Below are positions 9,001-18,000 of a DNA stretch of 55,996 nt, piece by piece (the stretch's first letter is position 1; the number at the start of each line of letters is the position of its first letter). Made by a program: the position numbers. The stretch comes from a virus (lineage: Duplodnaviria > Heunggongvirae > Uroviricota > Caudoviricetes). The stretch lies in IMG/VR virus record IMGVR_UViG_2880361019_000001. One strand, written 5' to 3'.

Positions 9001-12000
9001 GGCATAAAGTTTACGCATAATTACCTCTCGCTTTTCTGCAATAAAAAAGGCGCCATTTCTGGCGCCCGTATATGGGTTATAAAATTCAGCTGATACTGAT
9101 GCCTGCGGTGGCTTTCTTCATCACCACAACCAGCAAATCGCTGATACTTGCTGTGGGATACCAGTTATTCACCAGCCATGCTGATACCGAAAACTCCAGC
9201 GTCATGTGACCGTGAACCGGCAGGCATATCAATTGCGTATTTTCATGAAAGGAGATCACTCAATAACTTCCATCGAGATCGGGTAATAACATTTGAACAG
9301 ATCGCTGAATAACATCGATGGAGATCACTTTTGACTCATTTTGTTATTCAGTGATCTCCATCAATGTTATTGGAACTTCACAGGTGTGTTGATCTGTATC
9401 TTTTGCCATTCCGGTAAAGGATACCTATGCCAACAGTTCCAATTTCTATGAGAAAACTTAAAGAAATTCTTAGGCTTAAATACGGTGTTGGACTCAGCCA
9501 TCGACAAATTGGTCGTAGTCTTGCAATCTCCCCTTCCGTTGTATCCAGATATGCTAATCGGGCGGCTCAACTTGGCATAAAGCAGTGGCCCTTACCTACA
9601 GGATGGGATGATACAAAACTAAAACATGCGTTCCTTCAGACCCAGGTTAAGATGAAGAAGCACTCTCTGCCTGACTGGGCTACAGTACACCGGGAACTGC
9701 GTAATAAATGCGTGACGCTGCAGCTACTCTGGGAAGAATACTGTGAGCGTAATCCAGGCGGTTTTTACAGCTATAACCATTACTGCCGGATGTACCGTGA
9801 ATGGCTCAAAACCACTTCACCATCAATGCGTCAGGTACATAAAGCTGGCGAAAAACTTTTCGTTGATTACTGTGGACCTACCGTTGGCGTTACCGACCCT
9901 GAGACCGGAGAAATAAGAACTGCTCAGGTCATCGTAGCTGTTCTCGGGGCATCAAGTTACACATGGGCAGAGGCCACCTGGTCTCAGCAGCTTGAAGACT
10001 GGGTGATGAGTCATGTTCGCTGCTTCCAGTGGTTGGGTGGCGTTCCTGAACTTGTTGTTCCGGACAATCTGAAAAGCGCCACATCCAGGGCATGTAAGTA
10101 TGATCCTGACGTTAACCCTACCTACCAGCAGATGCTTGAGCATTATAATGTCGCAGTTTTGCCTGCGCGGCCACGTAAACCGAAAGATAAAGCCAAAGCT
10201 GAAGTTGGCGTTCAGGTTGTTGAACGCTGGATCATGGCCCGAATCAGGCATGAGATCTTCTACAGCCTTGCATCGCTTAATCAGCGCATTCGGGAGTTGC
10301 TGGAAAGACTGAATAACAAAATAATGCAGAAGTTGGGTTATTCACGTGCAGAACTCTTCATCCAGCTTGATAAACCCGCACTGAAGCCTCTTCCTGAAGC
10401 CAGTTACAGTTACACCCTGGTGAAGAAAGTCAGAGTTCATGCCGATTACCACGTGGAAATCGACAAACATTACTACTCGGTTCCATGTTCGCTGTTAGGC
10501 CAGCAACTGGAAGCATGGATCTCCGGAGAACTGGTAAGACTCTTCAATCAGGGGCAGGAGGTTGCTGTGCACCCGCGCAAGCGTACTTATGGCTACAGTA
10601 CCCGCAACGAGCACATGCCTGAAGCTCATCGACAGCATGCCACCTGGACGCCAGAGCGTCTTCTGGAATGGGCGGGGCACATAGGCAGTGAAACTCATAG
10701 TTATGTGCTTCATATACTGAACTCTCGTCCACATCCGGAACAAAGCTATCGCTTCTGCCTTGGACTCCTGAACCTTCATAAAAAATACAGTAAAGCCAGA
10801 CTTAATGCAGCATGTGCAAGAGCTCTGAAAACAAAGGTATGGCGTCTGTCAGGTATTAAATCGATCCTGGAAAAAGGTCTGGATAAACAACCTGTTCAGG
10901 ATCCAAAACCAGATCTGTTATCCACGATGGAACACGAAAACGTACGCGGCAGTGAGTATTACCACTGATACGGGATCCAATGATGAATCATCTTTACGAA
11001 CAACTGACCGCACTTAAACTCACCGGCTTCCGTGATGCGCTTAAAAAGCAACTTGCTCAGCCGGGCACATACCAGGAGCTGGGCTTCGAAGAACGCCTGT
11101 CATTACTGACAGCAGAAGAACTAACCTGCCGTGAAAACAGGAAGGCAGAGCGTCTGATCAAACATGCACGGTTCAGACTTAATGCTGAGTTATCAAAGCT
11201 GGATTATCGTAACAATAGAGGGCTGGACAGGGCCCTCATCCGTTCACTCAGTCAGGGAAACTGGTTAACCCTGAAACAAAATATTTTACTGACCGGGGCC
11301 ACCGGCAGCGGTAAAACGTTCCTGGCATGTGCACTTGGTCATAATGCCTGCCGACAGGGATACAAGGTCTACTATTATCGCCTTAAAGCGCTGATGGAAC
11401 AGTGCTATCAGGGGCATGCTGATGGAAGATACAGCAAACTTTTGACCAGGCTGAATAATAGCGATCTGCTGCTTCTGGATGACTGGGGGCTGGAACCTCT
11501 CTCATCAGAACAGCGTAGCGACCTGCTGGAAATAGTGGATCTGATGTACCAACGAGGCTCAATCATCGTAGTGAGCCAGTTGCCGGTGGAAAACTGGTAC
11601 AAAATGATCGGAGACTCCACACATGCGGATGCCATCCTAGATCGACTGGTTCATGGCAGTATCAAGATCGAACTTAAAGGAGAATCAATGCGGAAAATAC
11701 AATCTCCGTTGACCGAAGGAGATCAGTGAAGGTAATTTAAAAACGGTTCTGTGAAAGTGACACGAACCGATCTCCATCGATGTTACTCACCGATCTCCTT
11801 CACGGTAATACGCATCAATAACGCCACTGTAAATCAGCGTATTATCCAGCGCGGTACGGTTATAAATTTCAGCACCGTTTTTCCGCACTATCAGACGGCA
11901 TGAGGAGTAAATATCAGTATGCTCTCTCATGCTTAGCGCCACTGAATGCCACCGCCGGAATAACAATCTGCCGGTCAAACGGCTGATCGTCATAAACCCT

Positions 12001-15000: not shown

Positions 15001-18000
15001 TTTGTTCACCAGGATACTCTGCAGTCCCTTCACCGGGCCTTCTATCGGTCCCTCACCAATCGCATCAATCACACTCATCATCTGCGTGGATTTGAGATTG
15101 TCCTTCGCCTCGCGCGGTGTGTGCGCCTTGCCGCCACCTTTGCCCATTGTCTCACCCTTTACTGTGATAACTGTTACGCACAAAAACAACAGGCATCCCT
15201 GAGGATGCCTGTATCATCACTGAATAAAACTTCTGAATATCTTCACATTTTCACAAACTGACTGTGGTGCTAATAATTTCTCTGCGTTAATGTTTTTTGT
15301 CGTGACATAAGAATAATTCCTTACACTTAATCTTCGTAACTCTCCCGCAGTTCCGCAACTCTGCGGGATTTTTTTATTCTTTTTACCCCTGCCGCCCGAT
15401 AACCACGACCTTTCCGCCCCCGCCTTCATTACGGGTGCTGATGTCCTGGGATATCCGTCGTGAACCAACCAGCATTTCCCCGTAAGGCACCGGCATCGGG
15501 TTACCCTGGGCAATCATATTGTCCAGTGACGAAAAATACGTGTTCTGTTTACCGTTATCCGTTGCGCGGTAATCCGGTGTTTTTGCCTTCGGTGCCAGCA
15601 TCTGGGCCACACCGCCCAGAATCATACTGGCACCCAGTGAAAACAGCATCGTGGTGGCAGAAAAACCACCGGCACTCAGGGCTGTACCCCATAACGCCAT
15701 CGAGCCTCCGGCAGTGAAGAAAGAGCCCACGATGGCTGCCGCCCCCAGCACAATCTGCAGTCCGCCCTTTCCGGCTCCGGCCAGTCGCGGCACAATGTGG
15801 ATGACCGCCCCCTCACCCAGAGGTTCGTGAAGACGGGCGTACACCGCCTCCGGTGCCGTGTCCTCACCGCGAATACGTATCTGGTACCAGCCTTCGTTCA
15901 TCTGACGGCGGAATCCCGGCACCTGTAACGACAGCGCCCGGATGGCTTCCGCTGCCGTGTTCACGTACAGGCTGAGGCGGCGGCCAAATCGTTGTAAATC
16001 CCCGTGAAGGCAGATGCGTGCCAGTGGCGGTGACGCCAGACAGAATGCGTTCGTCGTTGCCATTTTTCGGAATACCTCTCCCGTTTACTCAGTTGTTCAG
16101 GCAGATGGTGAAGCAGTTCACCGTTGCCGCAGTAAATGGCGGCATGATTGGCCACCGATGCGCCAAAGCAGCACAGCAGGATATCGCCCGCCTGTGCAGA
16201 GGACAGGGGCACCCGGTAAAAGCCTGTGACCGCCATATTGTCCAGGTAAAGGTTCTGACCGTTGCGCCACCAGTCATCCTCACGCTCAAAATCCGGCATA
16301 TCAATTCCCGCCAGATGGTAGGCATCCCGGAACAGCGTGTAACAGTCCGTCACCCCGTGCTCAAAGCGCCGTCCTGTCAGATGTGGCACACAGCGGAATT
16401 TATGAATTTCCCCCCGGCAGACCAGCCACCAGGACAGTGCACTTTTTATCTGCAGCCGCCGGTCGGCCTCGCTCAGCCAGGGCAGACCACCGGGATGACT
16501 GTGGACCAGTGCCACAATCTCCCCCTGCATCTCTGCCCGCAGCCAGTCTTCCGGTGCAATACGAAAATACGCCTCCGGCTCTGCAGAGATATTCACACAA
16601 GGGATATACCGCTCCCCCTCCGGCGTTCTCACCACGAAGCCGCACGACTCCGCAGGCACACACCGCCGGGTGTGTGCCAGAATCGCTGATTCTGTCTGTG
16701 TCATAAACCGGGATTTACTGCGAAAGTTTATTAATGGAAAGGAAACCGCCAAAATTAGCCACCATGCCGCGCATCTCACACCCGCGCATGCACTTGCTGC
16801 ATCTGTCCTTACGGATATCGGTGGTGGGTTTATCGAACTCATCCGCCACAGCCCCGCCCGTGTAACCACACTCATCAGAGCGGTAGGTCCACATACAGGT
16901 GTTCGCCAGCATGATACGACCGGGAAACAGCGCCCCGTCCGTCTCGGTCGGTGTGGCCAGCACAAACGAGGCCGTCATGGCTGTCAGCTGCGACATCTGC
17001 TCCACCACCCAGCGGTCGCTCAGCTCCTGCTCCGGGTCCGCTTCCGGATTGCCCGCCACAAAATTCACCGCATCCAGAAAACGGGCATACACCCGGCGGC
17101 GGACCACCGTGGCCCCCACCAGGCTCTGCAGGTCCTCCGCCATTCCGGTGACAAGGCCAAACAGATTGGACACCGTCAGCGACGGTCTGGCACTGCTGCC
17201 CTTCCCGTTCATCTCAAAGCCGCTGCCGTCAATCGGGTACGCCTGATATTCACGCCCCTGCCAGGTGACCGGCTCCCCTTTTTCATTCAGTTCATTGCAG
17301 AAAAAATAGCGCTCACCGCCCTGCACCGTCAGGTCAATTTCCCAGAGTACCACCCGCGGTGACTGCTCTGATTTAACCGACTCGCTCAGACTTTCTTCGT
17401 GAATATCCTGCATCAGTTCACCACCTGCTTAAACTCCGCGCTGAACTCAACGCGCAACATCCCGACCCGCGCAGACCACCCGGCACAGGTCACCTTTATC
17501 TGCCGGTATGCATAGGGTGGCTTCCACAAAAATGCCTTCCAGCCACCGTGCTCTGCCAGGAACGCTTCCAGATGCCGGGCCTCCTCCCGGGTCACGGAAA
17601 GCGTCACACGGTATGTTTTCAGGTCAGCATTCAGCCCCGCAGCCATACGCTGCGAATACCCGTCACCAAAACGCACTTCACGCACCGACGGCTGCGAGTT
17701 CACCTCCATATCCGGCGTCACTTTCCAGCGAAAGGTTTTCATCGCCTGCCTCCGGAAAATACGCCGCCATCACGCATCTGCGCCTGAATCTCATCCTGCC
17801 CCCCTTGCGGGCCATGTCATACACCGCTTTCATCAGCTGCGGCCCTGCCTGTCCGTTGATACCGTCGTTCTGAATCACCACGTGATTGTTCTGATTAAAA
17901 CTAATGCCTTCCGCCCGCCGCATCTGCGCCGGACTTCCGGCACCGCCCACATAACCACCTTCCGCATACCCGCGCATCAGACGATACAGGTTGCCGACGC

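Follow-up and report, generated by a model that had tools for sequence, protein, structure and literature searches.

Three separate mutations in the receptor-binding region of the host-specificity gene J of an Escherichia albertii lambda-like prophage, one of them an ISEc12 insertion

The tip attachment (host specificity) gene J of a lambda-like prophage of Escherichia albertii 2010C-3449 (chromosome CP034212.1) was analysed in the IMG/VR virus record IMGVR_UViG_2880361019_000001, a stretch of 55,996 nucleotides referred to below as the window. This copy of J is very probably a pseudogene that arose through three separate mutations, namely a 2-bp deletion (lesion 1), an insertion of ISEc12, an insertion sequence (IS) of the IS21 family, and a 1-bp insertion (lesion 3). 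All of them fall within the region encoding the C-terminal receptor-binding domain, and we infer the order in which they occurred from genomes in which the first is found alone. The host strain is a human isolate (2010, sequence type ST5390, stx-negative; PMC10673567) and the prophage also carries type III secretion effector genes. The window was assigned to CP034212.1 by an exact protein match of the 1077-residue J product as sequenced.

The identity of the gene is supported by its position and by its domains. According to a tblastn map built from E. coli O111:H21 prophage proteins, the tail module on the minus strand runs in the order Nu1-A-W-B-C-D-E-FI-FII-Z-U-V-G-T-H-M-L-K-I-J-lom-stf, and both this map and the genes called on CP034212.1 place J between the H-M-L-K-I series and the pair lom-stf. 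The reading frame starts at the ATG at 15147; the limit of 15189 given by a first-pass annotation of the window corresponds to a TTG that is merely the mechanical start of an open reading frame (ORF) list and has to be corrected. From this ATG the truncated gene (J') remains open for 1077 codons and then reaches a TGA at 11914-11916 (...AKHERAY*). It is intact to residue ~1075, residues 1-1076 of the O111:H21 prophage J being matched in one frame by tblastn, and its product contains the Pfam domains FNIII-A_GpJ, Phage-tail_3, Ig_J, Ig_J_second and Phage_Tail_Tip. When the three lesions are undone, the repaired J comprises 1158 amino acids and all six gpJ domains (the five of J' plus Ig_GpJ_C) score above the Pfam cut-offs. 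The receptor-binding domain PF12421 occupies residues 1028-1158 of the repaired protein and encloses every lesion, so that no uninterrupted frame runs through it in this copy: J' keeps the first ~48 of its 131 residues, while the other 83 are lost or displaced by the two frameshifts and the IS. From this truncation, we infer that this J copy would have lost its adsorption function. The first-pass conclusion that the prophage cannot make a functional tail tip is thus sound as far as this gene is concerned, and has to be limited to this copy of J. The protein cluster to which J belongs contains 10,581 members, most of them partial.

The small lesions were located after removal in silico of the IS and of one TCAAT, by alignment of the restored sequence with J genes from three functional or intact relatives, namely E. 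coli O26:H11 11368, phage PhiR5_1 and Stx2a phage 2409. Lesion 1 reduces an (AG)4 tract to (AG)3: the coding strand reads CATGAGAGAGCAT here and CATGAGAGAGAGCAT in the relatives, and the plus strand correspondingly reads ctctctc at the position listed in Table 1. It lies ~106-107 bp from the edge of the IS, which is downstream of it in J. Lesion 3, on the other side of the IS, is one extra base (GCCGGTTCACGG on the coding strand here, GCCGGTCACGG in the relatives). The shifts of -2 and +1 leave the three segments of J in three different frames and therefore do not compensate each other. The two frame changes that the first-pass annotation had placed near 11925-11945 and at ~9210-9220 were both recovered in this way, as was its claim that the disruptions are separate rather than compensating. 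Its description of the three as independent holds in the sense that they are separate events, with the reservation that they are of unequal age, the 2-bp deletion being probably the first.

Apart from the lesions, the end of the gene is perfectly conserved. The middle and terminal segments show zero mismatches with the intact O26:H11 J, and over the last 300 aligned columns no substitution separates the two sequences, the three lesions being the sole differences. More generally, the 3' end of J is 99.4% identical (three gap columns) to that of dozens of genomes, with no substitutions in 486 bp. The centre of J has a mosaic structure and differs from the O26:H11 J at many positions between 13,400 and 12,200. 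The absence of substitutions from the last 300 bp suggests that the 3' lesions are of recent origin.

The inserted element could be defined to the base. Its junctions read TCAAT/TGCGTATTTTCATGAA ... TTCACGGTAATACGCA/TCAAT, and a single ATTGA (coding strand) stands at the insertion site in intact relatives. The imperfect terminal inverted repeats (9234-9249 and 11799-11814) end in TG...CA, and subterminal repeats with a GATCTCC motif are present at both ends. Inside the element, the intact istA and istB genes encode products of the same length as the RefSeq ISEc12 proteins (WP_001298859.1 and WP_001016257.1, respectively). The whole element is 99.7-100% identical at the nucleotide level to ISEc12 annotated in >1300 complete E. 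coli genomes, and the common core of >1700 full-length ISEc12 matches in E. coli corresponds exactly to 9234-11814. Seven copies that were compared are all of 2581 bp with the same boundaries, with duplications of 5-7 bp in the insertions examined, and the present copy shows no indel relative to other copies. With an istA-istB pair, terminal repeats, a duplication of 5 bp, which falls in the 4-8 bp range of the family, and near-identity to ISEc12, the element has all the features expected of its family, and the first-pass annotation had described its family, length, limits and TCAAT duplication correctly. The exact junction between J and the IS has no match in species-representative genomes or in IMG/VR. 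A shared insertion site in E. coli NRZ14408, considered on account of a 21-bp flank match, was rejected as a chance similarity, the target being different and located in a P2-like prophage.

Lesion 3 is also found in an independent sequence. Contig L031, from the separate assembly GCA_012469695.1 and found in four samples, matches window positions 9229-4206 at 100.000% identity along its 5024 bp. It reproduces lesion 3 together with frameshifts in lom and nleH, and it begins 4 bp from the IS boundary, which indicates that the IS is probably common to those four samples.

Lesion 1 has a distribution of its own. Two prophages of IMG genome 2859821903 (two IMG/VR contigs) have the (AG)3 form with neither the IS nor lesion 3. 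Of the E. coli genomes that carry this type of J (2092 in all), five have it: E. coli O26:H11 FWSEC0001, whose match is exact, and four others with a single mismatch; it is also found in other J sequence backgrounds. Two of these records, FWSEC0001 and SCU-484, were inspected; in both, the Prokaryotic Genome Annotation Pipeline (PGAP) labels J as frameshifted, and more deletions are present in the same region. This pattern fits an older dead allele, occasionally shared or recurrent, rather than a systematic sequencing error, for which five carriers among 2092 genomes are too few.

Because (AG)3 is found alone in other genomes, lesion 1 probably came first and made the two later hits neutral. 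In this scheme, a 2-bp slippage deletion in (AG)4 would have cut J short at residue ~1075, at the cost of 83 residues of the receptor-binding domain; the ~250 bp downstream of lesion 1 would then have been untranslated and free to change; finally, in the lineage of this strain, that stretch would have received ISEc12, with its usual 5-bp duplication, and the 1-bp insertion. Such an order explains why two extra hits are found in a short stretch while the 3.2 kb upstream stay open. Three points weigh against this account or against part of it: slippage in the AG tract could recur, so that the order is not proven; the assembly of 2010C-3449 is PacBio-only, judging by the genome-announcement title that PMC10673567 cites; and an exact look-up of the expected partial J (residues 378-1077) did not recover lesion 1 from short-read contigs of this lineage.

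The reverse order, in which ISEc12 entered an intact J and both frameshifts gathered later in the dead gene, we regard as unlikely. It would accommodate the proximity of the two frameshifts to the IS (18 bp and ~107 bp), and the otherwise complete identity of the J 3' end to intact genes, which suggests that all the events are recent, is compatible with it. However, other genomes and J backgrounds have (AG)3 with neither the IS nor lesion 3, and an IS insertion would have freed the whole 3.5-kb gene from selection, yet its upstream 3.2 kb are still an open frame.

The coordinates of the features of J, and of the other features of the window considered below, are collected in Table 1.

Table 1. 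Features of gene J, of the inserted ISEc12 and of other inactivated or mobile elements in the window
Feature	Position in the window	Strand	Basis
ISEc12, IS21 family, 2581 bp, opposite to J	9234..11814	+	Repeats, identity to annotated copies
Target duplication TCAAT, 5 bp	9229..9233 and 11815..11819	.	Junction reading
istA, transposase, 513 aa (amino acids), intact	9427..10968	+	Pfam rve + Mu-transpos_C_2
istB, helper ATPase, 248 aa, intact	10983..11729	+	Pfam IstB_IS21, E = 2e-67
Lesion 1: (AG)4 tract shrunk to (AG)3, 2-bp deletion in the receptor-binding domain	11922..11928	-	Alignments to three relatives
Lesion 3: insertion of a single base (coding-strand T, plus-strand A) at a distance of 18 bp from the IS	9215..9216	-	Alignments; contig L031
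J', truncated tip attachment / host specificity gene	11914..15147	-	ORF, translation, tblastn, Pfam
Middle J segment, repaired codons ~1076-1114, second frame, with the right copy of the target duplication (11815-11819)	11815..11921	-	Three-frame translation
Terminal J segment, third frame, with the original stop codon (9086-9088)	9086..9214	-	Three-frame translation
V, major tail gene, -1 frameshift (CCC -> CC)	Gene 21183-21934, lesion ~21617	-	Comparison with relatives
FI, DNA-packaging gene, nonsense at codon 37 (...AQRVS*WEEE...)	Gene 23274-23654, stop 23544-23546	-	Comparison with relatives
lom, -1 in a T4 run at codon 9 (GCCATTTTGTCC -> GCCATTTGTCC)	Gene 8420-9018, lesion ~8994	-	Alignment; contig L031
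nleH, effector kinase, two frameshifts, three frames	Gene 5856-6764, lesions ~6042 and ~6677	-	Comparison; contig L031
DNA methyltransferase gene, 11-bp deletion (CCAGAACTGCGCAAGACAC -> CCAGACAC), frame shifted after ~65 codons	Gene 37436-38471, lesion ~38281	-	Comparison
Replication-module ATP-binding (DnaC/P-like) gene, +1 in a C5 run, first ~20 codons displaced	45288-46029, lesion ~45968	-	Comparison
IS1, three identical copies	1-393 (cut by the window edge), 49290-50057, 50991-51758		Sequence comparison
IS66-family ISEc22-like element, one copy	~1787-4122	-	tnpA, tnpB and tnpC intact, 99.6-100% amino-acid identity

The damage to J is part of a wider decay, the prophage containing about ten further inactivating lesions beyond J (Table 1). 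The 1-bp deletion in the major tail gene V splits it into ORFs of 130 and 134 amino acids. The broken V allele is widespread: gene calls from at least 12 contigs contain the identical 130-amino-acid fragment, and one of these contigs was seen in at least 20 samples; many Logan short-read assemblies are among the sources. The DNA-packaging gene FI is called as pieces of 36 and 78 amino acids, and the 30-amino-acid frameshift product of lom is recorded only for this genome. Beside the frameshifted effector gene nleH, nleF (5229-5798) is intact and is covered by the 100%-identical contig L031. Among the mobile elements, the IS1 copy at ~49.3-50.06 kb splits an ECs_2282-family gene, and ~930 bp separate it from the last copy, while the ISEc22-like element lies between nleF and a DUF6387 gene (876-1712). 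With V frameshifted and FI bearing a nonsense codon, J is one defect among several and need not be the limiting one, and its lesions are best seen as ordinary decay in a prophage whose degeneration is general.

A phage-borne tRNA cluster (37134-37383, minus strand) encodes Arg-tct, Arg-tcg and a CAT-anticodon tRNA, whose equivalent in a related prophage is annotated as tRNA-Ile by RefSeq. The cluster is located upstream of a gene of 616 amino acids (SASA/DUF6645, 34897-36747), where stx usually lies in Stx phages; no stx genes were noticed at this place.

The same chromosome harbours two other lambdoid prophages that bear on the meaning of the J defect. In the second, a remnant (L010, CP034212.1 814681-835262), J is 99.9% identical over its first 1130 nt and is split by its own ISEc12 at nt ~1130 (duplication ACCACAT) and, further along, by an IS66 element. 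The third (L039, CP034212.1 4537199-4559838) carries an intact J of 1159 amino acids that is 95% identical overall and has a different receptor-binding domain, close to that of the solved 'A8 gpJ'. Its FI is a single unbroken gene of 124 amino acids, its V has the same frameshift as in the window, and ISEc12 is inserted at codon 33 of its tail-fibre C-terminal gene. The J defect is accordingly limited to this copy and does not extend to the whole cell.

The presence of that intact J raises the question of whether the defect matters at all, since co-resident lambdoid prophages might provide J in trans or restore the gene through recombination and so leave the prophage mobilisable. Trans-complementation of J is conceivable by analogy with E. 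coli O157 Sakai, in which defective prophages are packaged and transferred via prophage-prophage interactions (PMC2669165). It nevertheless seems quite improbable that the defect is immaterial for this reason: the frameshifted V is shared by this prophage and by the one with the intact J, so that the tail tube would be predicted to be lacking still from both prophages checked, and the prophage in the window has in addition a nonsense codon in FI and a frameshifted replication gene.

ISEc12 is thus present in all three lambdoid prophages seen in this genome, in the J receptor-binding domain, in the N-terminal third of J and in the tail-fibre C-terminal gene, respectively. These three insertions in the host-recognition modules of three prophages are the sole mildly unusual feature of the system. 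One could suppose that ISEc12 does not strike at random but is directed to, or selected in, the host-recognition module of the lambdoid prophages of this strain; if so, effector-bearing prophages would be 'grounded'. One could also suppose that the (AG)4 tract in the J receptor-binding domain is a recurrent slippage hot spot, with an 'off' allele that spreads among prophages by recombination. We hold these less ordinary readings to be quite improbable. In E. coli, a rough count found the element within joining distance of sequence resembling the J 3' end or lom in five of the 1761 records with a full-length ISEc12, and by this count an intrinsic preference for J or lom looks unlikely. No target-site consensus was visible among five ISEc12 sites. 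Independent ISEc12 hits were observed in E. coli prophages, in J of NCTC9112 (duplication CCGAG) and in lom of JB2 (duplication GATAA); ISEc12 in J or lom is rare among the 1761 records.

It could also be asked whether only the IS insertion is real and both small frameshifts are long-read consensus errors near a repeated element, which we consider very unlikely. Such a view would draw on the PacBio assembly mentioned above, on the fact that both indels are missing from the nearest E. coli relatives without any accompanying substitution in the 486 bp, and on two (AG)3 E. coli assemblies in which lom and tail-fibre genes close by are also frameshifted. Against it, the independent contigs agree with 5 kb of the window at 100.000%, an agreement that extends to the +1 base and to three other indels, and the V frameshift recurs in many short-read assemblies; on these two grounds, sequencing error was largely rejected for the small indels. 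Moreover, the 11-bp deletion and the nonsense substitution of the prophage are not long-read error types, and the 2581 bp of the IS are free of indels relative to other copies.

Finally, it is extremely improbable that a working tip results either from J' (1077 amino acids) together with a separately translated C-terminal piece or from programmed frameshifting at the AG tract: direct reading does show that, with the 2-bp deletion, the downstream frame has an ATG that overlaps the J' terminus (ATGAGAGAGCATACTGA), and (AG)3 persists in several genomes, but there is no obvious ribosome-binding site and no slippery heptamer, the downstream piece is itself broken in the window by the IS and the second frameshift, (AG)3 carriers show further decay of the same region, and functional phages and >2000 E. 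coli genomes have an in-frame (AG)4 or GAGAAAGAG, the short form being the rare one.

Stepwise inactivation of J by three separate mutations therefore remains our preferred reading. Every component of it is already known, the IS being catalogued, the phage gene well known and the pseudogenisation of the routine kind that PGAP flags in related records, and the case is of little import beyond annotation. It offers nevertheless a worked example of the stepwise decay of a pseudogene, in which a first frameshift is followed by neutral hits downstream. It also indicates that this prophage, whose nleF is intact, would be unable to build its own tail tip or tail tube and may thus be regarded as a fixed genomic island and not as a live phage.

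Compared with known systems, the ISEc12 reference copies share with the present one its length, the sizes of istA and istB, the TG...CA ends and the 5-bp duplication, with identity up to 100%; they differ from it only in the insertion site, and the host here is E. albertii. In the same way, tssM has been inactivated in E. coli ST131 by ISEc12 with a 5-bp duplication (PMC10711316). As for J, the genes of E. coli O26:H11 11368 (WP_000515142.1, 1158 amino acids) and of phage PhiR5_1 have the same order H-M-L-K-I-J-lom-stf and the same six Pfam domains, and relative to gpJ of lambdoid prophages of enterohaemorrhagic E. coli (EHEC) the last 300 bp are equal save for the three lesions of this copy. 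The first-pass annotation had aligned the three segments to the C-terminus of lambda J. The homology is genuine and extends over the full length of lambda gpJ (NP_040600), whose receptor-binding domain belongs to the same PF12421 fold family, although the resemblance is moderate (65% amino-acid identity to the repaired J overall, 42% in the receptor-binding domain), whereas that to the EHEC lambdoid J is essentially an identity. With a receptor-binding domain only 42% identical to that of lambda, the receptor need not be LamB. Solved structures exist for lambda J (8iyk, 8xcj) and for the closer 'A8 gpJ' fragment (9wca). At the scale of the whole prophage, the nearest parallel is the pool of defective lambdoid prophages of E. 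coli O157 Sakai, in which several effector-bearing lambda-like prophages likewise share one chromosome and most have multiple defects, including in tail and host-specificity functions (Asadulghani et al. 2009, PMC2669165). That pool differs from the E. albertii case in species and in its set of IS.

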